Positions 17,811-61,851 are shown, numbered from the stretch's first letter. The stretch is 64,000 nucleotides of DNA from Chiloscyllium plagiosum (GCF_004010195.1 NC_057754.1:5100220-5164219), one strand, 5' to 3'. A program made the numbers and translations. Notes: a model not told the origin generated them from the sequence alone.

Positions 17811-17824
17811 ACAGGAATGTCCCT

Positions 17825-21729: not shown

Positions 21730-21875
21730 CTACTGCTCGTTGCTACCACCTAATGCCTTGAAGGCAGCAAGTACAGACTGCCCTTTTTTTTGTTGCTGGG
21801 GCCAAAGTGTAGTGTTTATAGTTGCTCGTCGCAAGACATGTGGGCAGGAAGGTCCAGAAGGGATATCTGCAAAAC
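21730..21875 (-). CDS. CENPF: CENPF-like coding exon 14 (GFADIPSGPSCPHVLRR...GGSNEQ*)
   Basis: tatttccag|GT TTT GCA GAT; ends CAG TAG|GTACAG. Confidence 0.88.
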
Positions 21876-24800
21876 CTGGAAATAGAAGAACTAACATCAG
21901 AACTCACAGGCAAAGTGCAGATTTAAAACAAATCACTGCCAACTCAGAGTCATAGCCACGCACCACGGAAATAGACTGGTCCAACCAATCCATGCCGACC
22001 AAGTTTCCCAAACACTGTAGAGATTCTATGAAATTAGTCCCACTTGGTCCATTTTTATTCTATTTCTTTTCTATTCATCCAAATGTCTTTTAAATGGTTT
22101 AACTGTACATGCAGCCAGCACTTCCTCTGGTAGTTCAGTCCACACACGAACCACCGCGTGTAAAAAAGATCCGCATGTCTTTTTAAAATTTTCTCCTCTC
22201 ACCTTAAAAGTATGTCCCCTAGTTATGAACCATATGAACCACTCTAGGAAAAAGACCCTTATACACGCCCCTCACCTGCGACAGGGTTAGGGTGAGAGTC
22301 TTACTGGAGTCAAATATTAATTCTAACCCTCTCCAACAGATGCTGCTAGATTCATAGAGTATCTTTAGCATTTTCAATGACTATTTTTTACATCTGGCAA
22401 TACCAAGTGTCAAAAGCACAAACATAATCACAGGACCAATAGAAGCCATTTCACTCGTTACACCTGCTGCAGTTTTTTCAAGCTAGTCCCATTCAGTCTT
22501 TGTTATCCCCATGGTCAAGCAACTTTATTGTCTTTTTGAAGTCTCCAATTCTATTTTAAAAGGTCAGGGGTGCCTTGCTAGATTTGCAAGGTGGTCCCAT
22601 CAAATTGCAAGTTGCAACTGTGATTGCAATTCAAACTCTTGAGCTTGGTTCCCATCTCTGAATTACAACAAATCCACAGGGTTTATTTTTCACAGAAACT
22701 ACATCCAACGAATAACTATAGCAAACTTTGTTTTAACTGGCACTCTTCATAAACCTGCAAAAATAATATACCTCAAATACCAGAAGTTTACTGCATTATC
22801 ACGATCTCAGAGTAGTCAGCTGAGGATGCGGGTGAGAAAGCTCTCTGCCAGTAAGTTTTATTTAAGGCAACGTTGCATTATGATATAAGTGATTTATATT
22901 GTAAATAAAACATAACAGTGATATATATACCCCTTATATTACGTTTCTATTACTTCGTGTGCGTTTTTAGTTACTACGTGGACTTTTTGCTCAAGTGGAA
23001 TATCTGATCAACTGATATACTTCTGGTCCCATTAAGTGCCAGTTAATAAAAAGCTTGCTGTATTTCTGTTATCTACTTTAGCAGCACTTGTGCAATTAGA
23101 GCTGAAGGGGTTTGGGCAGTTGTTTGGTTGTGTAGGGGTAGTTTTACTCTGTATCTACCCCCATGCTGAAGCTATCCTGGGAGAGTTCAAGAGATCATAA
23201 ATCATGAACCCTAAAGAGTTAACTGCATATTTATTTGAACAGAAGAGTACAGAAATAAGGTCATCAACCTACCCTTTTGCACCACATCGGGTAATCCATA
23301 TGGTTCATATTCTGTTTCGTCAAACGCTACAGACACATGATGCCTGAATAGCCAATTCCTCTGCAGTCTGGCAGCAAGCTCAGCAGTATTGATTTGCATC
23401 ACGAGCTCTGCAGGATTTAGTCTCACCAAGTATTCTTCAGGATTGGTGTGTCCCTTTGACCTGTGGCTGCTCTCTTTCTGGTTCCGCTCAGCTGCCGGAA
23501 TGGGGTCTCCACCAATCTGTCGTCCAGCATCTGGCTTCCTCTCTTCAGTTGAAGATTGTGCCTTCAAACGTGCAGCAGGCCACTGACCACTGGCCACAGT
23601 TTCAGATCTGCGTTCATGGAAGTGGTCCAGAGCTTTAGACAAGATCTTGTTGGCCACTTTTACCTCTTGGTCTTTGTTTTGTAAATCAGAGTAGCTGAGC
23701 AGATGGTTATCAATCTCTTCACTTTTCCCTTGAACAGTTTGTCTCAGAGCCTCCAGATTAGCACCAAGTTTGCATGCTATGATCTGCGCAGTATCTTACA
23801 GAAAAATCATGAAAAATAACATTAAAAAAATGCTTCTGGAGCGTGTTAAATCAGATATCTTTTTGCAGCTAAATCCCCAGCTTGACACAAAATTTGTTTT
23901 GATTTCTGTTCTGCTGTTGTTGGGCACTTTATCATTCTCATCACAAATGCTATAAATTCCTGCATGAAAATAAGTCCACACAGGCATTTATCAATTCACA
24001 AGTTTTACAAAGAAAGTTAGCGAGTTTTGAGAAGATTTGTAGCTCAGGTTGAGGTTCTGGATGTAGGTTTGCTCGCTGAGCTGGAAGGTTCATTTCCAGA
24101 TGTTTCGTCATCCTCTTAGGTAAAATCTTCAGTGGGCCTCAGGCGCAGCACTGTTCATAATTCCTGCTTTATATTTATATGTTTGGGTCTCTTTGGGTTG
24201 GTGTTGTCATTTCCTGTGTTTCCAACCAGAACTCTAACAACATACACATCGAGTTAGACCCCATCTACCACCCCTTGAGAAAAACAGGAAATGACATCAC
24301 CAACCCAAAGGAACCCAAACATATAAACAGAAAGCAGGAATCCTGTACAGTGCTTCGCCTGAGGCCCACTGAAGAGGTTACCTAGTAGGGTGACAAAACG
24401 TCTGGAAATGAACCTTCCAGCTCAGCGAGCAAACCTAAATTCGCAAAGAAGGTTATTGCCCTCTTTTATTGAAATTTCTCAAATGATTTCACATTCAATC
24501 AGTTTTGGACCACTCCAAAGTAAAACAGGAACAGAATGGGACAAACTGCAAGGCAAGAATCCCTTGCTGAAACTTTTCACATAAAAAATAACCCCAGTCT
24601 ATTCAGCCTCTCACTCTAGGGTTTGAGCTGTGGAGAGAAGCTGAATAGGCTGGGACTATTTTCCCTGAAGCGTTGGAGGATATGGGGTGACCTTTTTGAA
24701 GTTTATAAAATCATGAGGGGCACAAATAAGGTGAAGAGTCAAGGTCTTCCTCGCAGGGGGAGAGGAGTCCAAAACTAGAGGACATAGGTATAAGATTTAA

Positions 24801-27800: not shown

Positions 27801-30800
27801 TTTGCCTGGATTGAACTCCATGAAGCATATAAGTCTCTCTAGAATTAGACCTTCCAAACTACATCACCTCACATTTGCCTGGATTGAACTCCATTTGCCA
27901 TTTCTCTGCCCAATTCTCCAGTCTATCTATATTCTCCTGTATTCTTTGACAGTTCTCTAGGCTTTCTGCTACTTCACCAATCTTCGTGTCATCTGCAAAC
28001 TTACTGATCAAATCACCAATGCCCTCTTCCAGATCATTTATGTATATCGCAAACAACAGTGGCCCTAGCACTGATCCCTGTGGAACACCACTGGTCACCT
28101 TTCTCCATTTCGAGAAACTCCCTTCAACTACTACTGTGTCCAGTTGTTCAAACAGTTTTTTTATCCACCTAGCTAGAACACCTGCACACCATGTGACTTC
28201 ACTTTCTCCATTATTTTACCATGGGAAAACTTATCAAACACCTTACCAAAGTCCACATATATGACTTCTACAGCCCTTCCTTCATGTATTAACTTGGTCA
28301 CTTCCTCAAAGAACTCTTATGATGGTAAGGCACGATTTCCCCCACACAAAACCATGTTGCCTATCACTGATAAACCCGTTATCTTTCAAAGATAAATAGA
28401 TCTTATCCCTCAGTATCTTCTTCAGCAACTTTCCCACCACTGATGTCAGGCTCACTGGTCTATAGTTACCTGGAATATCCCTACTACCCTTCTTGAACAG
28501 GGAGAACAACATTAGCAACTCTCCAGTCCTCCGACACTTCACCTGTGTTTAAGGATGCTACAAAGAAATCTGTCAGGGCCCCAGCTATTTCCTCTCTTGC
28601 CTCCCCCAGCAACCTGGGATAGATCCCATCCGGTCCTGGGGATTTGTCCACCTTTCATATCCTTTAGCCTACCCAACACATCCTCCCTCCTTATGTCAAC
28701 ATGATCCAGAGTAAACAATTTCTCTAATCTAAACATTCATCATGTCCCTCTCCTCAGTGAACACTGATGCAAAGTAATCCTTGAGAATCTCACCCATTTT
28801 CTCAGGTTCGACACACAACCTTGCTTCCCTACACTTTAGTGGACCAACCCTTTCTCTAGTTACCCTCTCGTTTCTTATATATGAGCAAAAGGCCTTGAGA
28901 TTCTCCTTAATTCTGCTCACTAAAGTTATTTCATGACCCCTTTTAGCCTGCTTGATTCCTCGTTTAAGATAGGTCTTACTCTCCCGATATCTCAAAAAAG
29001 CTATTTAAATGGTACCTTGTTGCTGACTGCCTTCTGGCAGGATGGTCTTGTGAAGACCATTTACCCGCAGAACTTCCTTGGGCACATCCTCTCTGACAGC
29101 AGAGTTTCTTTCCCACAGTTTCAACCTGGCACGCAGTTCCATATTTTCTTTGTTCAGCTCAACAACCCTTTTCTGCAGATGGTCAACCTGCAAATAACAT
29201 TCAAACAGGTGATGAAGGCATGCATATTTCAGGAGATTCGAGACTGGCTTGAGCACCAATTGCACTTGAACGGCTGTAATTTAAAGTGCCTTCGCACACT
29301 GTGCCAAATGCTAGCTTACCGATTATTTGCTCGGCTAAAATTCTGCACATCAGAAACATTTTTGATTGACAATGATGTCAGGGGGTACGGGCACATGCAG
29401 GGAAATAGAGTTCAAGCCATTTCAGATCAGAGGTGACCTGTCTAGAGGCTTGCAGGACAGACCGAGTGGTTTATGCCTGCTTTGGTTTTCTATTCACATT
29501 TTTGCTTGGATTTGAAACATGACTTTGAGAAGCCCAGACCGTGAAAAAAAAGTCTCCAGGTGTTGTGTGCAATCAGATTTTTTGCCCCAAGTGGCACAAC
29601 TGCTCGAGGTGCCAGTATGAAAGTGAGACAGACAAGAGTGCCATCAAATGCAGACCTTTGTCAAGTTCACAATGTTCAACAGTGGAGTTGAGCTGCTGAA
29701 CTATCTTCCTCTCCTTCACGTAGATATGATGTGGAGGTGTCAGTGTCGGGGTGGACAAGGTCAGAAGTCACAACACCAGGTTACAGTCCAAAAGGTTCAC
29801 CTGTAATCACATGCCTTCGGAGCACTGTGCTCCTCCTCGCTTCGCCTGCCGAGAGAACAGAGGCACAGAATCCACAGACAGAGCGACCAAAAGGTCACAC
29901 AAATGGTGTGAGTGGAGTGTTGACAGGCCAAACAACAAACCTTCGTAAAAGATCAAAAGCATAAGACCGCGTGAGCAAACCACTAACAGCTGAACAGAAG
30001 TGAAGGGACGACTTGTTAATGTCCGCCACCTTGAGCAGGGGATATACCTGTCTCTGTCTCTCTCTATGTCTCTCGGATGTTGCAAATGAACCCAAGATGG
30101 CAGACATTAACAAATCGTCCCTTCACTTGCTGTTCAGCTGTTTGCTCACGTGGTCGGACGCTTTTGATCGCTGTTCGGCCTGTCAACACCCCACTCACAC
30201 TACAAGTGCAACCTTTTGGTCTCTCTGCCTCTGGATTCTGTGCTTATGTGCTTCTCCTTGCTTCAGCTGGCGAGGGACTGGCGATCACAGAATTCCAACA
30301 GTGTGGAATCAGACCCTTTGCCAGCCCGCTGAAGAGTATCCCACCCAAACCCATTACCCTACCCTACTACTCTACATTTACCCCAACTAACACATCCCTG
30401 AACACTACGGGTAATTGAGCATGGTGAATCCACCCTCACCTGCTCATCTTTGGATTGTGGGAGGAAACCGGAGCACCCAGAGAAAACCCATGCAGACATG
30501 GGGAGAATGTCTGTGTGGAGTTCGCCCAGTCGCCCAAGGCTGGAATTGAACCCGGGTCCCTGACGCTGTGAGGCAACAGTGCTAACCACTGAGCCACCGT
30601 GCTGATCTGAGGGCCTTTGATTTCAGATGAACCTGTTGGACTGTAACCTGGTGTTGTGTGACTTCTGACCTTGTCCCTAATGTAGAGGCACTGATATGAG
30701 CCAGAACCTTACCTCCACGTTGCTAAATGGCTGAAATGTACAGCCTTTGGCACCCTTTTCCTGAAAAGATGGTGGATGCAGAATCTTTGAATATTTTTAA

Positions 30801-33800
30801 AGTCAAAAGGTAAATGGGTTCTTGATGAGCAAGGAAGGGGTGAGAAAGCTGGAAAGGTTATTGTAGACAGCTGGGAAGATGGAGCAATCAGATTAGCCAA
30901 AATCTGACAGAAACCAGAGCAGGTTCAAGGGACCAGCACAAGCAACACAAGTCACAATCCTGCAGCATTTCGCACCTTCAGGTAAAGGTAGGGGGAAAAG
31001 TGGAAAACACAGGGGAACCTCGATTATCCAAATACCAGATTATCCGAAGGAGATCTCGAGGTCCCAATAGAAACATTACATCAAAGATGTGTTTGCAACA
31101 GTGATCGCGTCTTTTGTTTACAGTGATTAAACAGATACCATCTCCAAATGACTGTCTGCCCACCCTCTCTCTCTCTCCCCCCACACTTTCCCTGGAGTTC
31201 TACAGAGGGGTGTACCCTTAAACCCCCCTTCACCACATAATCTCTCCAACATTGTCCTGTACAGGGCAAAGATAGAACCTGTCAAAAAGTTGCAGTAAAA
31301 AGTTGTGAGTGTGGCTGTAGCTGTGTGCGTGCGTGCACAGACTTACCCCACAGCAGCAGTCTTGTTGTTGGTATCCAGTTCAGCTGGCCCAGAGAGGGGA
31401 TGGGGCAGGGTGGGAGGGGAGTGGGGTTAGATGGGGTTGGGGGACAGGGGCAGGTGGGGGCAGGGGCAGGGTTGCCAGGGCGGAGGTGGGGTTGAGCGCG
31501 GGGCAGGCAGGGGCGAGGTTAGACGGGGTTCTGGAGGCGGTGTTGGGGATGGAGCTCACGTGCTTTGTGGCAGGGCGGGCGGTGCTGGGCTGGGTCTCAC
31601 GCATTGTGTGCTGTTGCAGTCTCCTGAACAGGGAGCAGACTTCTAAAAACTCCGAGCCCCCGAGGAAAGGCATTTAAAGCGATTAAGTGAATAATCAATT
31701 ATCTGAACGAAATAATGCCCGCCCAGCTCGTTCGGATAATCGAGGTTCCCCTGAATACAAAAGCATACAGCACCTGATTCTGGAGTGCAGACTTTTTAGA
31801 CTGGATTGTCTCCAATTCTTCGTGAAGCGGTTTCTGGGAATCCTTTGCAGTTTGAGCTATGTTTTTTAGGGTCTCATGTTCTTCTTCCAGTCGCTGGATC
31901 TGTTTGTTCACCTTGAGCACAGACTCCTGTAACGCACATGGTTCTCCCAGGCCACTTTCCTTCCGAGATTCCGAACCAGCACCATCTTCTAGAACCTTCT
32001 GCTTCCAATCTCGCAGAGCCTTCAACTCTTGCTTCAGGTGGTTCTTCTCTTCGGTACTTGCTCTGAGCCGGGCCTCACTGGACTGGATTGCGTTCATCAA
32101 GTCTTCTTTCTCAGACAGCTTGTCACCAGCTGTTTCCTGGGCTTCCTGAACTTCCAAATGAAGCTGCTCCTTTTCTTGTTCCAGTCTGGTACATTTTGAA
32201 CGCAAGAGATTTAATTCCTTGTTCAAGTCGCTGACCACTTGCTGGCTCAATTCCTTTGTCTCTTTGAGCTCCTCCTCTGAAACATGTAAGGCGTCAGTCA
32301 ACCTGCCTATTACCCTTTCCACTTCTTCAACCAGCTCTTCCTCCGTTCTCAATTCATCAACTGGCTTCTTTTCTTTAAAAGCAAGAACAAGCTTAGAGTC
32401 AGCAATTTCTGTTGTTCCCTCTTCAATTAGCGTTTCAGTTTCATCACAAAACTTCTTGATATGAAAGGCCAACAACTCCTTCTGCATTGAACCACTCGTC
32501 CCCTGAAGGCTGGTGGAATGCCGGGCAGCACTGCCATCATTTCTCTGCTCAGAATTCAGTTCGACGGGTTGCCCTTGGTTTTCAATATTCTGATTTACAG
32601 AACTAACTGTGGAGGGCACCTGTGTGCCAGAGGTCGGCTTTGCAGCTGGATCAGATCTTACCCTCTGTTCCCTCGGTACAGCCAACATAGGATTAAACAA
32701 GTTTTGACAACACAGTGTGTGCTGCTGTGCCTGTATTTCAGGATCCTCTTTCAGTTTCAATACATCAGAGGGCACCTTTGTTTCTTCACATTGGTCGTCC
32801 AGAGCCTGAGGAACAGCCTGCACTTTGGGGAGCAGAGTATCAAACACATTTTCACTGTAGCCGGGCTCAGAGTTTTGAACCATTCCATCAGCAGGCACCA
32901 TGGCGGCTTGTTCACCCAACCCCAAGTTTTGCACGGACAGCACGTTGCCACTTTCACTCTCGCTTGGATCGCCCTGAGGAAGCAACCCCTCACTGGTTTG
33001 CTCCAGCATGGCATCCCTTGATAAAGCTGCACTGTCAGCATACTTCTGTTTGGACTGCAAGGCCACCTTCAAGTTGGTTTTCAGCTCAAAGTTCTCCTTT
33101 TGAAGGCACGACAGAACACTGAAAGTATCTTGCAGGCGCCCATTCAAAACCTGAATGGTCTGGTCCTTCTCCTCCATGCTCAGGAGAAGACCCTCGATGT
33201 TCTTACTTTGGGTTTCCAATGCTACTGTCAACTGCTGCGTTTCCCTGTGAATTCTCGATTGTAGACTGTCAAAATTTTCCTGAGCTTGTCTTTTGGCTTT
33301 TTCTTCTTGCTCCTTCTCAGTGGTCAGTTCTTGACATTTTTTCTTAAGTTCATCTACTTGTTTCAAATGATCTAGTGACTGCTTGTCAAACTCAAGTTGC
33401 TCAGCAACTTTGTGCTTCAGTTGTTCCAGGAAGAGCTCTCGACCATCCTCCTCATAGCTCCTCTCGTTGCCCGCCTTGACGACTTCTACACAGAGATCTC
33501 TCTCCTCATTTAGTTTCTGTTCTAGCATTTCTCCCGAGTCACAGCCCAAATGGTTTGGTGATATCTTGTTAACCTCAAGGTTTTCAGCATCTTGGCTTTG
33601 TAGATTTTCCAAGGGAAGACCACTGCTCTCAGTAACAAACGTCCAACTACTTGCTTTTATGATCTCCTCAATGCAAGTCTTTTCACTGTTAAGATCCTCT
33701 ATCTGTTGTTCAAGCTGCTCTATCTTCTTAGAAGCAGCGTTTTGCAGGATCTGAATTTCATCTTCATTTGGTCTCATATGGCCATCAATGGATCTTGTTA

Positions 33801-45800: not shown

Positions 45801-48800
45801 GTGTTCCCTCTTGCTGCCACGAAAACGTAGAGGCTCTAATCTGTTGTGGAGCACTTTCCCGGTGACTCTTGTTGCTGCTGAACTGCAACTGTTGAACCTT
45901 GGTCAAAGAACATTCAGTGAATGAGCTTGGAAGGCGAGACCGAGTGTATCTCCTCCATCCCCAACCTGAAGGCACTGACTTGAAAAATACGCTAGGCAAC
46001 AGGAGCTCTGTAATAAATGGTCCCATCACCCATTTTTCACATAATGAAGGAAAGTGGGAATGGAATCTATTAGCGTCTCTCCACAGCCATCACTCAGCAA
46101 CGACGTCAAGTTAATCATTTGTGTAGTGCAATCTGGCAGGGGTAAAATAAGAAAATCCTGACCAAACAAAATAAAACTGAATTGTCTTTGATAAGAGGTT
46201 GAGGCCTTGACAGACACATCTGTGCCTCTTTAGCCACAGGTGTGACCACAGAAGACTAGAGACTAGCCAATGCTATTCCTTTGTTCAACAAGGGCAACAG
46301 GGATAATCCAGGAAATTGTAGGTCGGCAAGCCATCGGTGATAGGAAAATAATTGGAGAAGATTCTTAGGGACATGATTTACTTGTATCTGGAGAAGTGAA
46401 TTATTAGGGGTAGTCCACATGGTTTAATGCAGAGGAAGTCTTGTCTCACAAACATGACTGAGTTTTTTGAGGAAATGACAAAGTGAGGGTAAGGCAGCAG
46501 ATATTGTCCATATGGATATTACTAAGGCATTTGACAAGGTCCCTCATCTTCAGGGTGACAGGGATAGGGTAAGGGAGCTGGGATGCTCTTTACAGGGTTG
46601 GTGTGAACTCAATGGGCCGAATGGCCTGCTTCCAAACTGTACAGATTCTATGTTAAGAGAAAAACGAGTCCCTGTAATTAAAGACAACACTGTAAAAACA
46701 ATACAATTTCCGGCCCAAGTTATCCCACTCCATCGTATCTCAATTCAGCAGCCCACTCACATAGTCACAAACAAGTGATTCTAATTACATTACTGGATGA
46801 GGGAAGAGGCCATAGAGGGGAAGACAGCCAGAGAATCCCAGTGGATTTTTTTCTTCAATTTGCACTGCAGACAAATGAACCACTCTCCTCCAAAGATTAG
46901 AAAATCTTAAATTTATTTAAAGCCTCCAGTGCAATATCAGATCCAAGATGCTTCACAGGAGGGAAGGGGGAATTAGAAGATGACTTTCATTTTTGGAGTT
47001 GCTCATGCAAGTGGAGGTCATTGGATTTGCAAGCATTTACAGGCTCAGTGGTTAGCACTGCTGCCTCACAGCACCAGAGACCCAGTTTCAATTCAAGCCT
47101 CGGGCAACTGTCTGCATGGAGTTTGCACATCCTCCCAGTGTCTGCGTGGGATTTCTTCCGGGTGCTCCGGTTTCCTCCCACAGTCCAAAGATGTGCAGGT
47201 TAAGGTGGATTGGTCAGGGGAAATTGTCCTATAGGGTCTAGGGATGTGCAAGTTAGGGTGGATTGGTCATGGGAAATTATCCACAGTGTTTAGGCACACA
47301 TAGGCGAGGTGCATTAGTCAGGGAAAATGTAGGGTAATGGGTCTGGGTGGGATACCCTTCAGAGGGGCAGTGTGAACTTGTTGGGCAAAGAGCCTATTTC
47401 CACAATGTAGGAATTCTAACGTGCATTTCATTAACGCGAATTCACTGTAACATGCCTGACAAACTGGGAACACGGTTTCTAAAGTGAACTTTTAATATGT
47501 GTATTGGGTGTAACATGATTACAGCACCAACACTTTTAAGCGCTGTTTCTAAAACGTGATTGTTCTGTAATGCAGGGTTGCACAAGAATGCACCCATCAC
47601 ACTATACAAGAGCTACCTGTATTGCTCATCCCTAACTTCTTTGATAAGCAACTTGACGATGTTAAGAGAACTCTTCAAGGTAAAGAAATGCTGCTTAAGA
47701 CAACAGAAGTGGGGAAGGTGGTTCCAGAGGGGAGGACCAGAAGACTGGAAACTATTTAAGGAAGGTTGCTCACCCCTGCCAAGTAACATACTTTTTAAGT
47801 TTCCCAGTCTCTCCCATTCTTACACTGATATCTCTGTAGGTCTGTGAATTCTCCAATATCTTGTTGGAGAACTGTTAGCATGCCACAAGATCTGCCCACC
47901 AATCACCAAGAGGGGTCCCTATGTCCTCATCAGCCCCCACCATCTCCAAAGCTTCAAACTGAAAACAAATCCAAATCCGTGTCCATGTGTGCTGCAACCT
48001 CTGACTTTTCAGTACAGGGGAAATAAAATACAGCCCGATGCAAACAGGGGATGAACAAACAACATCTGCTACTTAACACCCTGATCTTATTTGTCAAACT
48101 ACTCTATATCTGACTGTGCAGTGACGATTCAGTGTCAACCATCCACCAATTCACACCAACCTGCAGTTTCAGAGCTTTCACCTCTGAAACTAGTCGCTTC
48201 TTCTCCTCTATCTCCTGGTTATACTTTTCTTGCAGCTCATCCAGTCTTGAACCTAGAAATCAAGGTGCCATAGTAAACATTACTGTTGGTTTTAGCGTTG
48301 TGGGAAGCAGTTCACGAAGCCCTCAAAACTGCCACAACCTCGACCACATGGAAGGAGGGGGCAACTGATGCATTGGGAACATAATCAAATTCACACCAGT
48401 CCATTATTACTGAGGCAAACATTCCTCGGATTTTCTACTCTTACAGCACTGAGAGAGCACCCTTGCCACACAGGCTTCAGCGCTACAATAGGATTGGCCA
48501 CCACTTTCACAAGGGCCTGCAAGACCCCACATCTCAAGAGCAAGTAAATAAAATGAATATAAAAGGAAATTACTCCTACACGGTTGATGATGGTATCAGT
48601 TAGAATGTGCCCTTTTAATTCCCAGGATACAAATTTTGACAAGGCACAATAGGTTAAGTGCTCCTCTCTCTCTTGCTTAATCATGAAGGTTACATATTTG
48701 GCAGACTAAATCGTTGCAAAACATGTTCCCTGCAATTAAAATAAAACCTCATTTTTAAACAGATCCTCGAAGACCAGAGACTGCAAGTCACATTTACACT

Positions 48801-50752: not shown

Positions 50753-50785
<33 letters not shown>

Positions 50786-53700
50786 AGAGGGGTCCATTGG
50801 AAGGTGGCTAATATGGTGCCATTATTTAAGAAAGGTAGCAACGAAATGCCAGGGAGCGAGAGACATCAGTGGTAGATAAGTTGTGGGAGGGGATTCTGAG
50901 GGAAAGGATTTACATGTATTTGGAAAGGCAAGGGCTGATTAGGGATAGTCAACGTGGCATTGTGTGTGGGAAATCATGGCTCACTAACTTGATTTGAGTT
51001 TTTTGAAGAAGTGACAAGGACGATGGAAGAAGGCACAGTGGTCAGCTTAAAGACAAACCCAGTAGTGGTTCGTCCGTCTTTGCTGAACTCCCAATCAAGT
51101 GAAAGAGAACCGGATATGGGAGAAAGTTAAGTGAGAATTTTCATAAACGAGCTACACCACTTCTCCAAAGAGGAACAAGTAAAATCGGAACGTTGACGGT
51201 ACAGGAGATGGCCATTCAGCCCACTGTGTCTGTATCGGCTCTTGCAAGAACTACTCAGCCAGTCCCCACTCTCCTGCCTTTTCACTGCCGTCTTGAACAC
51301 TTCAGATAAATTATCCAATTCCTTTGTGAAAGTTGACACCCCCATCTCTTACCTACGCCTGGCACGTCAAGATCAAAGCAGAAATGTTTAAAGTACTCCC
51401 AATCAGGTTTGCTGGTCTTCAGCTATGTAACTCACCCTCATTAGGCCTGCTGAGCGTGGAACACCCAGGATAGATCTTAGTTGGAGTTAGGTGGAGCTGG
51501 CATTCTGTTGGTGTTGAGGCCCTTTGACTTCGCTCAAGCTCTGCTTCTAGCCTGAAAGCATTCCATGGTTTTACTTTGTATTAAAAAGTTCTTTTTAAAC
51601 CCTTAAAATTAGTATTGCCAAGAGATGAAGATGCAAAGGCCCTTGGTGCAAGGATGCACCATCAAGCTTGGAAAGAGTAGTAAAGGGAAGTTAGGAAGGT
51701 GATTAGGTTAACACCTAACTTTGGTTTCAGAAGCCTGTAAAGCGTAGCAGTCAGAAGCAGCTGAGAGGAGTGAGCAATCCAACAGTTCCTGCAGTCTTGG
51801 CAGTGAAGGAGTTAAGAGTAAGTGACAACACAGAAGTCACAGAAATGTTTGCGCATGAGAAGGGAATAAAAAGCAAATCACCTAAGAGAGCAACAGCACA
51901 GAGAGAGAGTGAGAGAGAGTGAGAGAGAGAGAAAGTGTGAGAGAGAGAAAGAGAAATCGCAGATTGGAAAGAGAAAAGATAAACAGAAGCTTTCATCCAT
52001 GACAAGACATTTTCATATAAATCAACAGCACAATTACAAATGAACATTACAACAGCTGAGCCCCAGATAATGAATCACAAAACATCAGCACATTCCATAC
52101 CCGCTCACATTAGACTTTGATTCATAGCTCTGTACAAAGGCAGCAGATGTTTACACACCATTTAAAGGCCTAGCAACATTCGCATCACCTGGACTGAAAT
52201 GTTTCAGCTGTCCTCAATTTCAACATTTTCCCCAACTGATCCAAAGGAATAAACATAGGCAGCGGTGAAAGAAAAGGTAATTGAGACAGTGAAAAGGTTC
52301 GAGATTGATAAGCACGAGATACTGGACTGACTGTCTGTACTTAAATGCGGAAATTATGCAGGCACTGGCTGTAAGGTTTTAATCTTCCTTAGATTCGGGG
52401 TGGGCCCCTGTGGTGAAGTGTTAGTGCCACTACCTCAGGGCCAGCAGGCTGAGGATCAAGCTCTACCTGCTCCAGCTGTGTGCAAAAGCAAAACTAGTGC
52501 AGATGCTGGAAATCAGAAACAAAAGCAGAAGTTGCTGGAAAAATTCAGCAGGTCTGGCAACATTTGTGGAGAGAAATTAAGTGTTAAAATTTCAGGTCCA
52601 GTGACCTTTTGTCAGACCAACACGAAGAACAGCAACTAAAAGCCAATCAATTTAACACAGATGGTAAGAAACAACAGCTTGACATGAAATGCAGACAAAT
52701 GAAGGTTAATTTAGCATAGAATTGTGTTCTATGGAACAAAATAGAAAATTGTGCTCAGTTAACTTGCTGGTTTTTTGAAAGAGGCAATGCCAAAGGCAAT
52801 GTTATTATTGTGATGTACATGGACTTCCAAATGGCAGTTGATAATGTCATACAACAGACTTGTGGGCAAAAGGTACAAATCGTGAAATAGGGACAATAGC
52901 AACATGGATACAAATTAGCTGACTAATACAAACCAAAGAGCAATGGTCAAGTTAATTTTTTTCCAGGCTTGGGAAAGGTTTGAAGAGGATTTCCATAGGG
53001 GTCAGTACTGGAGCTCTTGTTTTTTCTGACCTATAATAAATGTCCAATAACCTTAATGTATAAAGGAACATGTCAATATTTGCGAATGAAACAAAACTTG
53101 GAGGGATTTGCAAACTGTGAGAAGCAAAATGACATAGACAAACGGAGGAATGGGCAGACAAACAGCAGATGAAGTTCATTGGCGAGAAATGGAAGAACGT
53201 GGAGGCAAAGCACAAAACGAAGTGTACAACTCTAAAGGGTAATGCAAGAGAAGGACCAGTGGTGGATATGTGTATGAGTAACTGAAGGTGTCTGGACAGG
53301 TTCACAGCACGGTTAATCAAGTACAGAGAACCCAAGGCTTTGTAAATGAAGGCATAAAGTACAAAAGCAAGGACGTCACGATGAACTTGTACCAGGAGAA
53401 AGTGAGGTCTGCAGATGCTGGAGATCAAAGTTGAAACTTTATTGCTGGAACAGCACAGCAGGTCAGGCAGCATCCAGGGAACAGGAGATTCGACGTTTCG
53501 GGCACAGGCCCTTCTTCAGGAATGGTACCAGGCACTTGCTTGACCTCAGCTGGAGGATTGTGTCAAGATCTGGGCACCTCATTTTAGAAAGCATTAGGAG
53601 GGAGTGCAAAAAAGATACACAAGAGTGGTTCCCAGCATCAGAGATTTAGAATAATAGAGAAATAAAGCACGGAAACAGATCCTTCGGTCCAAATCGTCCA

Positions 53701-56700
53701 TTCCAACCTGATATTCTACATTAATCTAGTCCTATTTGCCAGCATCTGGCCAATATTCCTGCAAACTTTTCTTCTTCATATACCCATCCGGATGCCTTTT
53801 AAATGTTGTAATTGTACTAGTCTTCTCCAGCAGTTCATTCCATACATGCACCACATGAAAAAGTTGCCCCTCAGGTCCCTTTTAAATCTTTCCACACTCA
53901 CCTTAAACCTATGCCCTATAGTTTTGGACTCCCTTATCCTGGGAAAAAGACCTTGGACATTCACTCTATCCAAGACCCTCATGATTCTGTAAACCTCTAT
54001 AAAGTCGCCACACAGTTTCCGATACTCTAGAGTAAACAGCCCCAGCCTCTACCCATAGCTCAAACCCTCCAACCCTGGCAACATCCTTGTAAATTGTTTT
54101 AGAACCCTTTCAAGTTTTACAACATCTTTCCTATAACAGGGAGACAAGAATTGCATGCAGTATTCCAAAAGTGGCCTAACCAATGTCGTATACCATGTCA
54201 ATGCATCAGTGTGCCTTGGTTTTGGTGGAAGTGAATGTTTGTGGATGTGGTGCCAACATCAAGCAAGCTGCTCTGCCCTTTAGAGTCAAGCTTCGAGCAC
54301 TGTTTGAGCTGCATGCATCCAGGCAAGTGGGGAGCATTCCAGCACATACCTGATCTACGCCTTGTAGATGACTTTGTAGAGTCAGGAGGAGTGCTTCACT
54401 GTAAAATTGCTGGCCTCTGGCCTAGTCTTGTAGACACAGTATTTGTATGGCTAGTCAACGTTATCATCTACGATATGGATAGTGGAGGTTTCAGAGAATT
54501 GGTAATGTCATTGAAAGCTATACAGGTATTGAAAAGGAGTCTGAACAGAGTAGACAGGGAGATACTGTTCTATTCGCAAAAGCATACAGAAAGGGGCCAA
54601 GGTTTTAAAAGTAACTGGACAAAGAAACATTTTCACAAAGCAGTTAAGGTCCTAATGCAGAGCCCAAGAGAAGAGTGGAGACAGGTTCAATCAAGCCATT
54701 CGAAGAGAATTTGTTTGTTATTTCAAAAGTAATGATGTGCAAGGTTATGGGGAGAGGTGGGAGAATTGCTGATTTGTACAGATAAGATTATGAACTATTG
54801 CAGAGTTATAGCTCCCCAATAAACAGTACAGCAAACAAAGCTGGCACAAGCCTGGACAATACCTTTTTAGTTCTTGCTCCAGGTTGTCTATCTGTTTCTT
54901 TGCTGCCAGCAGCTGCCCCTCCAGGTTGCATACCAGGGCCTCCTTTACCTGAATCTCGTGGCATAGCCTCTGCTGTGCCTTCTCTAGACTGTTGCGTGCC
55001 TCTGTCAGACCCTGTGTCCCTCTCTTCAATGCCACATTCTCATTCCGTTCATCTTCAAGCTTAAAAACAATAAGAGTCGCATCAAAATTGCATACAGGTA
55101 ACGTGCCTGAAATGGTGAGGTACATGCAAGAAGATTTCCACTCTGAAATGCTCAGTCTCTATCTCTCCTCTGTACAACTGCTACTTAAAACCAATTGCTG
55201 AGAAAGCATTCAGTCACCCTTCAGAAGAATTTGTTCTTTTGCTTAGTTAAAAATCACACAACACCAGGTTATAGTCCAACAGATTTACTTGGAATCACTA
55301 GCTTTCGGAGCGCTGCTCCTTCATCACGTGGTTGTGGAGTATAAAATCGTAGGACACAGAACTTATAGCAAATGTTTACAGTGTGATGTAACTGAAATTA
55401 CATATTGAAAAAGACCTGGATTGCTTGCTAAGTCTCTCATCTTTTAGAATGAGCATGCTGATTTCAGTTCTTTCATATGTTAATTCCAGAACTTTCTTAA
55501 AGTTACATTCTCAAGTGAACTTTAACAATATGTGCCATGTTGGCCCAGATAATGCATTGAAGGTGTGAGGTGCCCTGTGTGAGACTGTCTGTACCCCAAA
55601 GTTTAGACAGATTCTAATCTAAAAAAAAGGACTTACATGGATTCATGCAGTTTTTGAGCAAACTAAAACGTAATTCTGCAAGTACAAATTCACCCCACAA
55701 ACTTGCGTGTGTGTGTGTGTGTGTATGTGTTTTGCTGAGGTGTTAACTTTTGTCTTTTCTTACTGTTTAGAGGTGCTATACAAACGCAAGCTTTTGCTGC
55801 ACTTTCCAATGAGAATCCACATAAACACCATTTGAGTGTTGAGTTGAGGGGTGACCTTATAGAGGTTTATAAAATCATGAGGGGCATGGATAGGGCAAAG
55901 GTTTTTTTTCCCAGGGTAATGGAGCCCAAAACTAGAGGGCATAGATTTAACGTGAGAGGGGAAAGATATAAAAGGGATCTAAGGGGCAACTTTTTCATGC
56001 AGAGGGTGGTATGTGTACAGAACAAGCTGCCAGAGGAAGTGGTGGAAGCTGGTACAATGTCAACATTTAAAAGGCATCTGGATGGGTAAATGAATAGGAA
56101 GAGTTTGCAGGGACATGGGCCAAATGGGACTAGATTAATTTAGGATATCTAGTCGGCATGAATGAGTTGGTCCAAATGTCTGTTTCCGTGCTGTACAATT
56201 CTAAGTTCAGGTTCTTGAAAACAATTCTTCAAACATTGTAATGTACACAGAAGAGGCTTTGTTTGTGAGAGATCATTGAAGAGACCAGTTTTCAACGCTT
56301 TTCACTTTGTACTCATGAAGATAACTGCAAGAATGCCAAAGTTCAAACAATCGCAACAGTTTATACTCAAAAATGGCATGACTGAATCAGTCAACTTGCC
56401 AACCATCCGTTTGAAATTTTGGCATTCTTGTATTTGTCCTGATGATTGCATATGAAAGCATCAGCCATGTGTCTCACTCTTCAGCAGAATTCAGTTACGT
56501 AAAGAGATATGGGAGCCTTGTGTATTTAGGAGGAATAGGTGTCCTTGGACCCAAGATTCCCAAACAGACGTATTAATTGTTGGAAACTAATCAACATGAT
56601 TGGTCATCATTTATGTACATGGATCCTGAATGGTGGAAGGTGATGAGAAAGTTGGTAGCCTTACACCTGCTAAGGAGATACAGGAAAGCATTCGACCACG

Positions 56701-58538
56701 GTGGGGGCCCATCTGTTCAGAGGAATTGGGGACATCTGTTCTTAGGGTTGGTGTAAATAAGGTGATAACGTTTGTTCACTTAGGGAATGTGTGGCAGTAC
56801 TTCCTTCTGATGCCAGAGGCTGGAAGCGCGCATATTTCACTGTGGGATGACTGATAACTGAGTCTCTGGTTTATATCAAAGACTCTTAACAAAACTCATA
56901 CTCAATAAGAAAAGAACTTGTAATTTAATAAGCTGAGTGGAATATGCACGTAATAGAACAATCCTGACACATTTTCATGTACACCACACTGAGTAGATTT
57001 GAATTTATGAAGCTCAGCTCCCTAATCTTGATTGTTCTGGAATGTGAATGTCTCATTACCCTTACAAAGGCTGAAAGTTGGAAGATGTTCATAGGTGAGT
57101 GAGAGAGAGAGAAAGAAAACATCCTTCTGTAAATTACATTCACTGATCGAAGGGTTCGGTTCAAGAGACACAGAGCTAGAGCGCGAGTGAGCAAGGCAGA
57201 GAGACAGACAGGACGGAAGCTGGTGGAAAGATTAAACCTTTATGGTCTGATTTGAGTGAACACTGGCTTGTCATGGATTAAATGTGTGTGTTGTTCCTTG
57301 GAGCTCAAGATCCGGGAATGTTATGAATTTAAGTTGCATTTTGGGAATCTACGATAATTTTAAAAGAAACGGTCATTTTGTTGGACAATGAGACTGGACA
57401 TGTTAGCTGAGCAAGGCGACCCCATGACCTTTTTCACATACTTTCGACTAGTCTCTCATTTTGATGTACTAGCCAAAACAATTGATCATTTGGCCTGGCT
57501 GGATCAAGGTTTCCCACTTTGATGTGCACGTAGCTCAATTAGTCAAGCGTACACAGACCTGTCAATGAGTTTCTCTTCTGCTGCATACTTTTGCCATTTT
57601 ATTGCTGCTTATCTGATTAAGGACATGTGGTGTTTTTGTAATTTTAATACCAATTTCTGTGTAAAGACTGCAGCAATAAGGGAGCAGCCTGAGAGAGCTG
57701 AGGGGGTAACAGCTGGCACTGCTCCTCTGCTAAAGATTTTAGAACCTTAGCTCAAGCCTGACTTGTAGGAATCTATGTTATCGTGTAATGTTGATGCCAT
57801 TGGTGAATAAAGGTAATAATTTAAACTAAACTGTCTGCAAAAGTTTTATATTCCAGACTACCACAGAGTACGATCTCCAGAACGAATCAAGAGAGGCTAC
57901 AGGTAGAGTCCATCAAGGATTACTTACAGTGTGGAAACAGGCCCTTTGGCCCAACAAGTCCACACACCAACCCTCCGAAGAGCAACCCACCCAGACCCAT
58001 TCCCGTACATTTACCCCATGACCTAACACTACGGGCAATTTAACATGGCCAATTCACCTAGCCTGCACATCTTTGGACTGTGGGAGGAAACCGGAGCACC
58101 TGGAGGAAACCCACGGAGACACGGGGAGAATGTGCAAACTCCACACAAACAGTTGCCCTAGGCGAGAATTGAACCCAGGTCTCTGGCGCTGTGAGGCAGC
58201 AATACTAACCACTGTGCCACCGTGCCATCCCTGAGCCAACTCGAATAAGTTTATTAATGAACCATATGAACATGGACTACACCTCAATTTTTATTTGCTC
58301 TCATACCAAGCAGGTGTTTAGTGCTTTTCATAGCTCACCAAAATTTAGAAGTAAGACCAGTTAAGAGGGAATCCACCTTTTGGTTGTGTTTCCGGAATGC
58401 ATCTTCTAAACTGTCCAATTGAAGCTGCTTTTGTTGTCGCTCCTTCTTCAGTTTCTCCAACTGGGTCTCGTATTCGGATATTTTCTGCAGAGCTTTGCTG
58501 GAGAGTTCAGATTTCCATTCCTCCACTGCCCAGCTCAT
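21730..58538 (-). CDS. CENPF: Centromere protein F-like, 14 coding exons, 5376 nt, about 1791 aa
   Basis: N-terminus MSWAVEEWKSELSSKALQKI (CENP-F_N family); C-terminal EYEPYGLPDVVQKGFADIPSG motif; long coiled coils. All introns are GT-AG with compatible phases. May be a paralogue rather than the orthologue. Confidence 0.88.
22717..23062. mobile_element. MITE with about 28-bp imperfect TIRs and TA ends (Tc1/mariner-Tigger-like)
   Basis: tatagcaaactttgttttaactggcact ... agtgccagttaataaaaagcttgctgta. Confidence 0.6.
23273..23794 (-). CDS. CENPF: CENPF-like coding exon 13 (...EYEPYGLPDVVQK)
   Basis: ttttctgtaag|AT; G|GTAGGT; 522 nt. Confidence 0.9.
24015..24440. mobile_element. Penelope-like element 3' remnant with inverted termini (family C)
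   Basis: 24065-24215 is the inverse of 24285-24437; spacer encodes NSNNIHIELDPIYHPLRK, typical of a PLE C-terminus. Confidence 0.7.
24620..25050 (+). mobile_element. CR1/HER1 LINE 3' end
   Basis: GDLxEVYKIMRG and ELPExxVxAGTITTFKRHL motifs. Confidence 0.85.
25140..25452 (+). mobile_element. HE1-type V-SINE
   Basis: Consensus match. Confidence 0.85.
26300..26327 (+). ncRNA. minimal hammerhead ribozyme core
   Basis: CTGATGA-A-GGGC-TTTT-GCCC-GAAA-CGTC; helix I is disrupted by the inversion junction. Confidence 0.6.
26455..26980 (-). mobile_element. CR1/HER1 LINE 3' end
   Basis: Reverse complement of the 24620 family. Confidence 0.85.
27050..28992 (-). mobile_element. CR1 LINE ORF2, about 1.9 kb, frameshifted reverse transcriptase
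   Basis: ORF pieces PGNYRPVSLTSVVGK, SGVPQGSVLGPLLFAIYINDL, SKFADDTK and LERVQRKF. Confidence 0.92.
29016..29187 (-). CDS. CENPF: CENPF-like coding exon 12 (VDHLQKRVVELNKEN...)
   Basis: ttatttgcag|GTT; G|GTACCA; 172 nt, phase 0 to phase 1. Confidence 0.82.
30295..30602 (-). mobile_element. HE1-type V-SINE
   Basis: Consensus match on the minus strand. Confidence 0.85.
31010..31753. mobile_element. Tigger-like MITE, copy 1
   Basis: TIR caggggaacctcgattatcc / ggataatcgaggttcccctg; homologous to 39768..40459. Confidence 0.8.
31774..34712 (-). CDS. CENPF: CENPF-like giant coding exon 11 (2939 nt, coiled coil)
   Basis: Within the 1009-aa ORF 31699..34728; aattttag|CT; CAG|GTGCTG. Confidence 0.9.
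34800..35445 (-). mobile_element. possible solo LTR
   Basis: Starts TGTGAC on the minus strand and has LTR-like composition; no clear TSD seen. Confidence 0.3.
36202..36337 (-). CDS. CENPF: CENPF-like coding exon 10
   Basis: atctttcag|GAA; T|GTAAGT; 136 nt. Confidence 0.88.
36490..37120 (-). mobile_element. CR1/HER1 LINE 3' end
   Basis: Same family as 26455 and 43840. Confidence 0.8.
38371..38493 (-). CDS. CENPF: CENPF-like coding exon 9 (MAAQRQQVDRELEE...)
   Basis: ttttctgacag|ATG; CAG|GTGATG; 123 nt. Confidence 0.88.
39768..40459. mobile_element. Tigger-like MITE, copy 2
   Basis: ta-cagaggaacctcgattatcc ... ggataatcaaggttccccta-ta; colinear with copy 1. Confidence 0.8.
40460..40955 (+). 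mobile_element. CR1/HER1 3' end with an inserted PLE terminus (about 40525-40660)
   Basis: WNELPEEVVDAG motif; ccttttccctgtg is duplicated on both sides of the PLE piece. Confidence 0.75.
40996..41124 (-). CDS. CENPF: CENPF-like coding exon 8 (ELSDQQRAY...MDK)
   Basis: cttgttag|GAG; AAA|GTAAGA; 129 nt. Confidence 0.9.
41789..41914 (-). CDS. CENPF: CENPF-like coding exon 7 (EELSCQRQNAESAR)
   Basis: cttgccag|TGT; CAG|GTTAGA; 126 nt; carries a hallmark CENP-F motif. Confidence 0.92.
42085..42320 (+). repeat. degenerate tandem repeat, about 67-bp unit, roughly 3 copies
   Basis: Repeating aaacactcccag...acag...cagagtaaagctccctctacactgt. Confidence 0.6.
42538..42740 (-). CDS. CENPF: CENPF-like coding exon 6
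   Basis: tttgttgcag|TG; AAG|GTTTGA; 203 nt. Confidence 0.9.
42845..44480 (-). mobile_element. two adjacent CR1 LINE fragments (42845-43830 and 43840-44480)
   Basis: ORFs MRSDLIEILAILQG and LERVPKRFTRLL...WNELPEEVVEAG. Confidence 0.85.
45585..45897 (-). CDS. CENPF: CENPF-like coding exon 5 (...STFSWQQEGTP...)
   Basis: Within ORF 45544..46029; ccaag|GTT; G|GTGCCG; 313 nt. Confidence 0.88.
46225..46550 (+). mobile_element. CR1 RT fragment
   Basis: PLFNKGNRDNPGN, SCLTN and MDITKAFDKVPH motifs. Confidence 0.8.
47040..47418 (+). mobile_element. HE1-type V-SINE with an internal tandem duplication
   Basis: Consensus match; the gatgtgca.gtta.ggtggattggtca.gggaaatt unit occurs twice. Confidence 0.85.
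48161..48252 (-). CDS. CENPF: CENPF-like coding exon 4 (SRLDELQEKYNQEIEEKKRL...)
   Basis: atttctag|GT; CAG|GTTGGT; 92 nt. Confidence 0.9.
48885..49190 (-). mobile_element. HE1-type V-SINE with (TCTAA)n tail
   Basis: Consensus match; (ttaga)n at about 48885-48903. Confidence 0.85.
49640..51040 (+). mobile_element. CR1 LINE 5' region (ORF1 zinc finger/esterase remnant plus ORF2 start)
   Basis: CSSCQM..CxKC remnant, VVVHVSTND SGNH-like motif, CIYFNARGL endonuclease start. Confidence 0.75.
50750..50783 (+). repeat. poly-G run
   Basis: About 33 nt of almost pure G. Confidence 0.9.
51436..51551 (-). CDS. CENPF: CENPF-like coding exon 3 (LEAELERSQ...RPNE)
   Basis: gctttcag|G; G|GTGAGT; 116 nt, open in the expected phase. 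Confidence 0.88.
51899..51955 (+). repeat. (AG)n microsatellite, imperfect
   Basis: Seen directly. Confidence 0.85.
52700..54190. mobile_element. CR1 fragments (+ strand 52700-53650; - strand 53660-54190) with a PLE terminus at 53395-53525
   Basis: MDFQxAxD and QGSVLG-like remnants; ORF 53776..53982. Confidence 0.7.
53488..53523 (-). ncRNA. minimal type-I hammerhead ribozyme motif in a PLE terminus
   Basis: attc-CTGAAGA-A-GGGC-CTGT-GCCC-GAAA-CG-TC-gaat: full core, 4-bp helix I, 4-bp helix II, GUC cleavage triplet. Confidence 0.75.
54863..55059 (-). CDS. CENPF: CENPF-like coding exon 2 (LEDERNEN...EQELK)
   Basis: ttgtttttaag|CTT; AG|GTATTG; 197 nt. Confidence 0.92.
55245..55725 (-). mobile_element. 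Penelope-like element terminus (family B), ending in (GT)n
   Basis: Starts with the same sequence as 10935. Confidence 0.65.
55838..56200 (+). mobile_element. CR1/HER1 LINE 3' end
   Basis: ORF 55832..56089 LRGDLIEVYKIMRG. Confidence 0.88.
57922..58228 (-). mobile_element. HE1-type V-SINE
   Basis: Consensus match. Confidence 0.88.
58377..58538 (-). CDS. CENPF: CENPF-like coding exon 1 (54 aa)
   Basis: ATG 58538; acceptor at 58574/58573 with a short 5'UTR; donor AAG|GTGGAT. Confidence 0.93.
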
Positions 58539-61622: not shown

Positions 61623-61851
61623 GAGTCAAAGAGATGGACAGCACAGAAACAAACCCTTTGGTCCAACTCATCCATGCCAACCAGATATCCTAATCTAATG
61701 TAGTCGCATTTGCCAGCACTTGGCCCATATCACTCCAAACCCTTCCTATTTATATACCCAGAATTGCTCTTTGCAAGGTCAGTACAGACTTGTTGAGTCA
61801 AATTGTGCAGGTCAGGTGAACTGGCTATTCTAAATTGCCCATAGTGTTAAG

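Follow-up and report, generated by a model that had tools for sequence, protein, structure and literature searches.

A 64,000-nt stretch of the genome of the shark Chiloscyllium plagiosum (contig C45:5100220-5164219; hereafter the window, in which all gene positions are counted) carries on its minus strand an intact gene, spanning 58538 to 21730, for a 1791-residue relative of the mitotic protein CENP-F. Following its database name, centromere protein F-like, we refer to this gene, its product, and their relatives as CENPFL. Taking the evidence together, we consider it probable that CENPFL is an ancient paralogue of CENPF, that the pair dates from the early whole-genome duplications of vertebrates, and that the shorter protein acts as a pared-down linker, a function we infer from its conserved parts. 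CENPFL has in common with CENP-F (mitosin or LEK1 of human and mouse, and the canonical CENPF of the same shark) the CENP-F_N domain, the C-terminal motif, exon boundaries, a series of collinear anchors, and the Gly, Phe, and Asp residues of the Miro-binding motif. It differs from CENP-F in length (1791 versus about 3000-3450 residues), in having one giant exon rather than two, in lacking the leucine-zipper (leu_zip) repeats, the basic tail, and the ENCxVQ farnesylation box, and in its location in another chromosomal block, beside RBM4.

The core of the gene is a minus-strand open frame of 1010 residues (31699-34731) that on its own matched no Pfam family and matched PDB entries at chance level only. 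A search of a large protein collection showed this frame to be 100% identical to P0002, the 1791-residue RefSeq entry "centromere protein F-like [Chiloscyllium plagiosum]", and returned proteins of C. punctatum and Hemiscyllium at 92-93% identity. We modeled the gene with P0002 as the guide on the window DNA. Searching with tblastn gave 14 collinear pieces from 58538 to 21733, and an exact splice-site search resolved these into 14 exons (58538-21730) that yield P0002 letter for letter, with GT..AG at 13/13 introns and a coding sequence of 5376 nt. The original prediction had claimed just such a gene, an intact 14-exon open reading frame of about 1791 residues with clean splice sites and a junction from 31774 to 29187, and the splice model reproduces it exactly. 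The open reading frame, the canonical splice sites, and an unbroken alignment with the orthologues of 13 other elasmobranchs all argue that this junction is real.

Coding exon 1 (58377-58538) opens with the ATG at 58538, encodes residues 1-54, and begins in register with M1 of all CENPF proteins. It is followed, always on the minus strand, by exons 2 (54863-55059), 3 (51436-51551), 4 (48161-48252), 5 (45585-45897), 6 (42538-42740, in which the Pfam CENP-F_N domain ends at 42685), 7 (41789-41914), 8 (40996-41124), 9 (38371-38493), and 10 (36202-36337), the last in a run of ten small exons that encode the N-terminal part and agree in their ends with canonical CENPF. The giant exon 11 (31774-34712; 2939 nt) encodes residues 533-1512 and leads into exons 12 (29016-29187), 13 (23273-23794), and 14 (21730-21875), the last of which closes with TAG.

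Could this gene be an error of assembly or annotation, in which a copy of CENPF has been truncated or collapsed, or else a pseudogene in decay? The assembly does have gaps, and the stretch that holds the canonical CENPF gene (see below) contains 5491 N as well as repeated exon pieces. The window, however, contains no N, and the CENPFL reading frame is intact across 13 canonical introns. Orthologues of 1648-1839 residues occur in 13 other elasmobranch species, at identities ranging from 95% (C. punctatum) down to 48% (skate), and a true CENPF lies elsewhere in the genome. We accordingly regard an artefact as very improbable.

That other gene was located by searching the whole assembly with three Pfam families, which identified a second CENPF locus at C9:45.11-45.21 Mb. 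Its CENP-F_N scores exceed those of the window gene, it has the C-terminal motif, and it contains two CENP-F_leu_zip matches within one 778-residue open frame. In the 200 kb examined, C9:45112048-45211133 covers residues 1-3018 of Callorhinchus CENPF with ten small exons at the N-terminal side, a pair of giant ones (~3.6 and 2.3 kb), and then the C-terminal exons, and its N terminus is 81% identical to Scyliorhinus torazame CENPF. The C9 gene is the canonical long-form CENPF, and the genome has two CENPF-family genes. A second, full-length CENPF near KCNK2 had been anticipated by the original prediction, and the C9 gene indeed lies 0.42 Mb from a KCNK2-type gene. Within this locus, at C9:45126857-45148143, two C-terminal exon pieces (Callorhinchus residues about 2470-2524 and 2521-2580) are each matched three times at a spacing of ~6-14 kb. 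Either these exons have been triplicated in tandem in shark CENPF, or the assembly is at fault here.

We surveyed the distribution of CENPFL in two protein searches, one listing the best 120 of 443 matches and the other, with P0002 residues 1-549 as the query, the best 150 of 260, from which thirty representatives were named. The first contained "CENPF-like" proteins of 1484-1839 residues in at least 14 elasmobranch species. Outside cartilaginous fishes, the coelacanth Latimeria has a CENPFL protein of 1880 residues that agrees with Latimeria CENPF at just 43% of the first 540 residues, and is therefore the product of a separate gene rather than a fragment. Ray-finned CENPFL proteins were found in Erpetoichthys, Acipenser, Scleropages, Albula, Denticeps, Acnodon, Umbra, Solea, and Boleophthalmus, and amphibian ones in the caecilians Rhinatrema and Geotrypetes and the salamanders Lissotriton and Ambystoma. 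Among sauropsids, members came from the lizard Elgaria (P0185, 798 residues) and the turtle Platysternon (P0199, 924 residues), in addition to P0196 (536 residues). These sauropsid models are under half the length of those of fishes and sharks, yet keep the first ~135 residues, the central island described below, and the C-terminal motif; they represent either further shortened genes or incomplete models.

Canonical CENPF proteins among the representatives came from Scyliorhinus, Pristis, Polypterus, Polyodon, Lepisosteus, Scleropages, Danionella, Denticeps, and Ambystoma, accompanied by one lamprey and one crinoid protein. Five species (Chiloscyllium, Latimeria, Rhinatrema, Ambystoma, and Scleropages) contribute one protein to each of the two clades resolved below, and Denticeps likewise has both kinds of protein. 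The original prediction, which read the window gene as a second retained CENPF copy, is thus upheld as to paralogy; the gene is kept far more widely than it implied, with lizard and turtle included.

The window protein is itself one of the automatic "centromere protein F-like" models, and these have in common their clade, the central island, the PYGLP and SCP residues, and the loss of the CAAX box. The CENPF-like name is carried by models of elasmobranchs, Latimeria, Erpetoichthys, Acipenser, teleosts, Rhinatrema, Geotrypetes, and Elgaria. The models are unstudied, annotation pipelines have named them inconsistently (P0148, P0146, P0199, and P0268 are among the members concerned), and the sauropsid members are far shorter. 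The axolotl CENPFL is entered as "early endosome antigen 1-like", that of the newt Lissotriton as "uncharacterized protein", and that of Platysternon as "Centromere protein F". In the sterlet (Acipenser ruthenus), one cluster holds models under two names, "centromere protein F" and "centromere protein F-like", and the UniRef name of the Scleropages orthologue is the zebrafish name "si:dkeyp-115e12.6". We found no paper on a vertebrate CENPF paralogue in a literature search that lay outside supplements, subscription journals, Ensembl, ZFIN, and ohnologue databases. The gene models and their names are already public; what appears to be new is their reading as a second vertebrate CENP-F gene.

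Phylogenetic analysis separated the two genes clearly. In a careful maximum-likelihood tree of 41 rows and 614 columns, 19 CENPFL rows, including the window protein, formed a clade with support 100/99, and gnathostome CENPF proteins formed another with support 96/97, in which the C9 gene fell beside Scyliorhinus and Pristis. The window protein accordingly lies outside gnathostome CENPF, as a second copy of the gene was expected to. Within CENPFL, elasmobranchs branch first, followed by coelacanth plus amphibians and by ray-finned fishes, an order that matches the species tree. A quick tree of 64 rows gave the same splits. A topology constrained to unite elasmobranch CENPFL with chondrichthyan CENPF was rejected (log-likelihood difference 95.3; approximately unbiased [AU] test p 7.1e-7).

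The two families are also distinguished by sequence signatures. In a BLAST comparison, a central stretch of the window protein (residues 985-1087) aligned with Erpetoichthys CENPFL at 49.5% identity and matched Latimeria CENPFL and the lizard protein as well; no CENPF match to this stretch was obtained at 1e-4. The heart of this stretch, a coiled-coil island at residues 1001-1050 (...IHRETQQLTVALE.QSKNIE...; 33160-33309), is a hallmark of the CENPF-like family by BLAST, conservation, and profile. The corresponding profile scored 63.8 bits in Elgaria and 56.2 bits in Platysternon, and had no match in 5 CENPF proteins. The window protein carries both family signatures, the central island (...ETQQLT.A.E.QS.NIE...) and YEPYGLP...SGPxCP. 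The C-terminal motif as such was present in 162 of the 296 proteins examined (P0002-P0297). The sequence ...YEPYGLP..VV.KGFADIP.GP.CP... occurs in 52 of these, all without a CAAX box; a CAAX end is found in 99 of the other 110, one of which is a CENPFL with PCGLP.

These results bear on the alternative that CENPFL arose by duplication within sharks or cartilaginous fishes, diverged rapidly, and underwent an internal deletion, its grouping with bony-vertebrate proteins being a long-branch attraction of independently shortened copies. CENPFL rows are long-branched and deviant in composition, and the N terminus of the window protein is about as similar to CENPF (42-45% identity) as to Latimeria CENPFL (44-45%), both as such a history would have it. 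Against it stand the AU test, the internal branching of CENPFL along the species tree, and derived characters that lie outside the tree columns, namely the central island, the PYGLP and SCP residues, the loss of the CAAX box in 52 of 52 proteins, and an end ~30 residues past the motif. A shark-specific origin is, in our view, barely credible. The trees and signatures instead indicate that the duplication of CENPF and CENPFL is older than the split between cartilaginous and bony vertebrates, and that CENPFL is an old vertebrate family with its own architecture and not a shark novelty.

Several aspects of the sampling and the trees count against this conclusion. The 41 rows were picked by hand from about 265 proteins (one or a few per major lineage, none under 1000 residues, and few mammals), the grouping submitted to the AU test was defined after the quick tree had been seen, and the deviant composition and long branches of several CENPFL rows can inflate a clade. 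Among the matches listed (the best 120 of 443 and 150 of 260), CENPFL was not seen in mammals, birds, frogs, crocodilians, or Callorhinchus. The lamprey protein joins CENPF only weakly (81/50), and the root of the tree is a single crinoid row on a branch of 1.93; given these two features, the pair may stem from either the first or the second round of genome duplication (1R or 2R), of which the original prediction had named the second.

We compared the architecture of CENPFL with that of CENP-F along its length. Pfam identified CENP-F_N (PF10481) at residues 1-312 (E 4.5e-82; 276.6 bits, the cut-off being 37.7) and CENP-F_C_Rb_bdg (PF10490) at residues 1726-1767 (E 5e-20; 71.2 bits). CENP-F_leu_zip (PF10473), which is present in Scyliorhinus CENPF and at the C9 locus, had no match in the window protein at E up to 0.1, in agreement with the original prediction, and was found in none of the 15 CENPF-like proteins scanned. 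The likeness to CENP-F that had been claimed for the first ten exons was borne out: the region they encode matches the first ~550 residues of CENPF at 42-45% identity, and all ten exon ends fall within 0-3 residues of piece boundaries in the C9 gene. The window gene, C9 CENPF, and mouse Cenpf also have in common an intron immediately ahead of the G of GFADI; in the mouse gene, G2871 is described as opening exon 17 (PMC6428352).

Between these ends, sliding 120-residue profiles of the CENPFL alignment, run against 11 CENPF proteins, provided collinear anchors. CENPFL residues 1-600 correspond to CENPF 1-580 (9 to 11 of 11 targets), and residues 721-900 to about 650-830 (8 and 4 of 11). The latter anchor includes a conserved coiled-coil island at residues 741-860 (33730-34089), which reached at least 15 bits in 8 of the 11 targets. 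Weaker anchors link residues 961-1140 to about 840-967 (2 and 1 of 11 targets) and 1201-1380 to about 2190-2460 (3 and 1 of 11). BLAST extended the series, aligning residues 1376-1513 with Callorhinchus CENPF 2335-2472 and residues 1512-1769 with 2715-2954 of human isoform X2. The latter are residues 2870-3109 in the 3210-residue numbering, by an offset of 155 that was checked on Cys-2961 and the CAAX Cys. From the order of these anchors, it follows that the single giant exon corresponds to two parts of CENPF, the opening of its first giant exon and the end of its second. By this comparison CENPFL is without roughly CENPF residues 970-2190, about 1200 residues that include the leu_zip repeats; the original prediction's estimate of about 1300 missing residues was close.

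Conservation along P0002 peaks at residues 1-550, 751-850, 1001-1050, and 1701-1750. To describe the giant exon, we used an AlphaFold model of exon 11 built from the single sequence with no alignment; its confidence is low (mean predicted local distance difference test score 48.5), and only the pattern of helical and non-helical segments was read from it. Long helices are predicted at P0002 residues 675-886, 925-1094, 1273-1443, and from 1458 onward. Two stretches, 553-674 and 1095-1272, are acidic by composition and non-helical in the same model, and are probably disordered.

The C termini of the two proteins differ. In exon 14, G1744-FADIP...LRR (21875-21826) is followed by a tail of 31 residues that ends ...KALGGSNEQ, with neither a CAAX box nor a basic microtubule-binding tail. 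When 14 CENPFL and 11 CENPF proteins were aligned, the former stopped ~25-35 residues past LRR and the latter ran ~100-130 further residues to ENCxVQ, an end found in 0/14 CENPFL and 10/11 CENPF proteins. Upstream, in exon 13, residues 1579-1631 (23610-23768) align in MAFFT with the kinetochore-targeting core of CENP-F. The position of human Cys-2961 in this core is occupied by Trp in both chondrichthyan CENPF proteins aligned (Callorhinchus and Scyliorhinus) and by Cys in the other nine.

We sought evidence on the origin of the pair in the gene neighborhoods of the two loci, using whole-genome searches with a handful of gene families. On C9, CENPF sits between a Prospero-domain gene (45.66-45.77 Mb, 0.45 Mb away) and a two-pore-domain potassium channel (K2P) gene (44.67-44.70 Mb) whose best solved match is KCNK2 (96 bits, versus 91 for KCNK10 and 61 for KCNK4). 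Farther along are a nuclear-receptor zinc-finger gene at 43.21 Mb and a MARK-type KA1 exon, with MARK1 as its best match, at 39.70 Mb. This order mirrors human 1q32.3-q41, and the C9 gene occupies the canonical position of the PROX1-CENPF-KCNK2 block. The neighbor 3' of CENPFL in the window is an RBM4-like gene on the same strand (5457-10308, minus), with two RNA-recognition motifs (RRMs; 9578-9994) and a CCHC zinc knuckle (5457-6107) by Pfam; its best solved matches are RBM30/RBM4 (114.6 bits), RBM4B (98.6), and RBM14 (73.1). Two coding pieces of this gene were examined, and its RRM exon lies 11.7 kb past the CENPFL stop codon. Elsewhere on C45 (13.66 Mb) are a TWIK-type K2P exon at 3.89 Mb (KCNK1 173 bits, KCNK6 113), BBS1 at 1.41 Mb, DPP3 at 1.38 Mb, and a MARK-type KA1 exon at 0.36 Mb. 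RBM4, BBS1, DPP3, and the other C45 markers are 11q13 genes in human.

The presence of a MARK-type gene on both C9 and C45 fits an origin by whole-genome duplication. MARK-type KA1 exons occur on exactly four large contigs, C9, C45, C10, and C41; Prospero genes occur on C9 and C10, TWIK-type K2P exons on C45 and C41 with a third on C3, and alpha-actinin-type EF hands on C9 and C41, with no match on C45. The human counterparts of the four contigs are 1q, 11q13, 14q, and 19q13, and we consider C9, C10, C41, and C45 a candidate four-fold paralogon. Pyruvate carboxylase (PYC_OADA) was found on small unplaced contigs and was uninformative for synteny. We infer that CENPF and CENPFL stem from the early vertebrate whole-genome duplications, 1R or 2R, which would have left CENPF within a block like human 1q32-q41 and CENPFL within one like 11q13, each with a MARK-type kinase gene.

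Part of the neighborhood evidence speaks against such an origin. The original prediction had pointed to KCNK4 and ESRRA, which lie with RBM4 at human 11q13; neither was found on C45, where the sole K2P gene is TWIK-type and no nuclear-receptor zinc finger (zf-C4) was matched, leaving the MARK-type pair to carry the paralogy of the blocks. Moreover, BBS1 and DPP3 are 3.7 Mb from the window, and the distance between the CENPF-family gene and the MARK-type gene of a contig is 4.7 Mb on C45 and 5.4 Mb on C9. Few paralogous pairs, missing markers, and megabase distances are also what would be expected if the same gene, of the same age, had arisen by a small-scale (segmental or translocated) duplication in a stem vertebrate. 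The distribution of MARK, Prospero, TWIK, and actinin genes over C9, C45, C10, and C41 is, by contrast, the pattern of a four-fold paralogon, and we judge a small-scale event to be quite unlikely.

What CENPFL might do is suggested by the functions mapped on CENP-F. One account of the human protein (PMC6028960) describes microtubule binding through residues 1-385 and the last 187 residues, Nup133 binding through 2866-2933, binding of BUB1 and kinetochores through 2922-2990 with a contribution from Cys-2961, and farnesylation on Cys-3207. A second (PMC6428352) defines a Miro-binding domain at 2977-3020 in which G2988 and F2989 are essential, and reports that the motif is dispensable in mice. 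A third (PMC10897228) describes F2989 inserting in a hydrophobic pocket (ELM1) of the first EF-hand domain of Miro, and D2991 pairing with R263 of MIRO1; according to this account, a crude FADI motif turned up further Miro clients. CENPFL retains counterparts of G2988, F2989, and D2991 (G1744, F1745, and D1747) in its KGFADIP sequence, the first half of the Miro-binding-type motif being encoded at the end of exon 13 (23273-23333). G1744, F1745, A1746, D1747, I1748, and P1749 are invariant in 22/22 aligned CENPFL proteins, within the family motif YEPYGLPxVVxKGFADIPSGPxCP..LRR.

The retention of the microtubule domain and long helices, together with the lack of a lipid anchor and of a second microtubule site, suggests a coiled-coil linker between microtubules and Miro-bearing mitochondria. 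Most likely, CENPFL would be expressed in dividing cells and would pair as a parallel coiled coil, holding microtubules at one end by its N-terminal domain and docking at the other on the mitochondrial GTPase Miro via GFADI, with F1745 entering the ELM1 pocket as F2989 of CENP-F does. Such a protein would be a pared-down microtubule-to-cargo linker, without the membrane anchor and second microtubule site of CENP-F. Cell-cycle-regulated expression of CENPFL fits a published G2/M marker module that lists zebrafish si:dkeyp-115e12.6 alongside cenpe, bub1, and ndc80 (PMC12891946), a connection made by transfer of the gene name only. CENPFL may also have a role at kinetochores or the nuclear envelope. 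The case for function is not without opposing points: the predicted Miro and microtubule roles are read from conserved residues only, and the segment aligned with the kinetochore core scores at most 13 bits by profile and has Ser at the position of Cys-2961.

A different functional possibility is that CENPFL modulates CENP-F as a natural "mini CENP-F", by forming heterodimers through the N-terminal coiled coil or by competing for Miro, Nup133, or BUB1 sites. The best conserved parts of CENPFL (residues 1-550 and 1701-1760) are those it has in common with CENP-F, both genes are kept together in many lineages, and the zebrafish orthologue, as identified by name, is expressed with G2/M genes. The heterodimers, however, are purely hypothetical, and CENPFL has its own invariant residues (PYGLP and SCP) and its own central island, which point to partners of its own. 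We think a modulator of CENP-F unlikely, and favor the linker between microtubules and Miro. CENP-E, described in one source as a possible distant paralogue of CENP-F (PMC6028960), resembles CENPFL in being a long coiled-coil corona protein with microtubule-binding ends; it differs in having a kinesin motor and a CAAX box, both missing in CENPFL, and the searches made here showed no specific similarity between the two.

The window contains a few further features. A dispersed repeat with open frames reading ...CCWKS.AGQAAS.EQENRRFG.KP... is present in at least six copies, at 58911-59243, 17687-18076, and 14095-14409 on the minus strand and at 61851-62117, 16958-17329, and 12708-13067 on the plus strand, with a further occurrence at C45:3.89 Mb, and probably represents a short interspersed element that is abundant in the C. 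plagiosum genome. At 61966-62461 (minus), two overlapping open frames of 152 and 161 residues had no Pfam match at E up to 0.01; one contains ...CSRCGLLYIGET..., which resembles the GIY-YIG motif of Penelope-like elements. The GC content reaches 0.53 at 62000-64000, compared with 0.36-0.48 in the other bins apart from 0.51 at 30-32 kb. A possible reading of this GC-rich end is a CpG-island promoter, belonging either to CENPFL, through a 5' untranslated exon, or to a gene upstream.

CENP-F has been studied intensively in mitosis, ciliopathy, and cancer, and its numerous functions are hard to separate because they are combined in one giant polypeptide. With CENPFL, zebrafish, axolotl, and other tractable animals would offer a natural separation-of-function variant, which keeps the N-terminal microtubule domain and an invariant Miro-type motif but has neither leucine-zipper repeats nor a second microtubule site nor a lipid anchor. 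It would also be a clean addition to the early vertebrate duplicates that mammals have lost, and it brings together database entries named inconsistently as CENPF, CENPF-like, EEA1-like, and uncharacterized. A broader, tentative scenario, which we hold to be rather doubtful, is that jawed vertebrates began with two CENP-Fs: a long, farnesylated CENPF at kinetochores and the nuclear envelope, and a short CENPFL devoted to linking, in the cytoplasm of dividing cells, the ends of growing microtubules to mitochondrial Miro. Mammals would have lost CENPFL, and their CENP-F would have taken over the mitochondrial task. If true, this division of work between two genes would explain how the Miro motif of mammalian CENP-F can be conserved and yet dispensable in mice.

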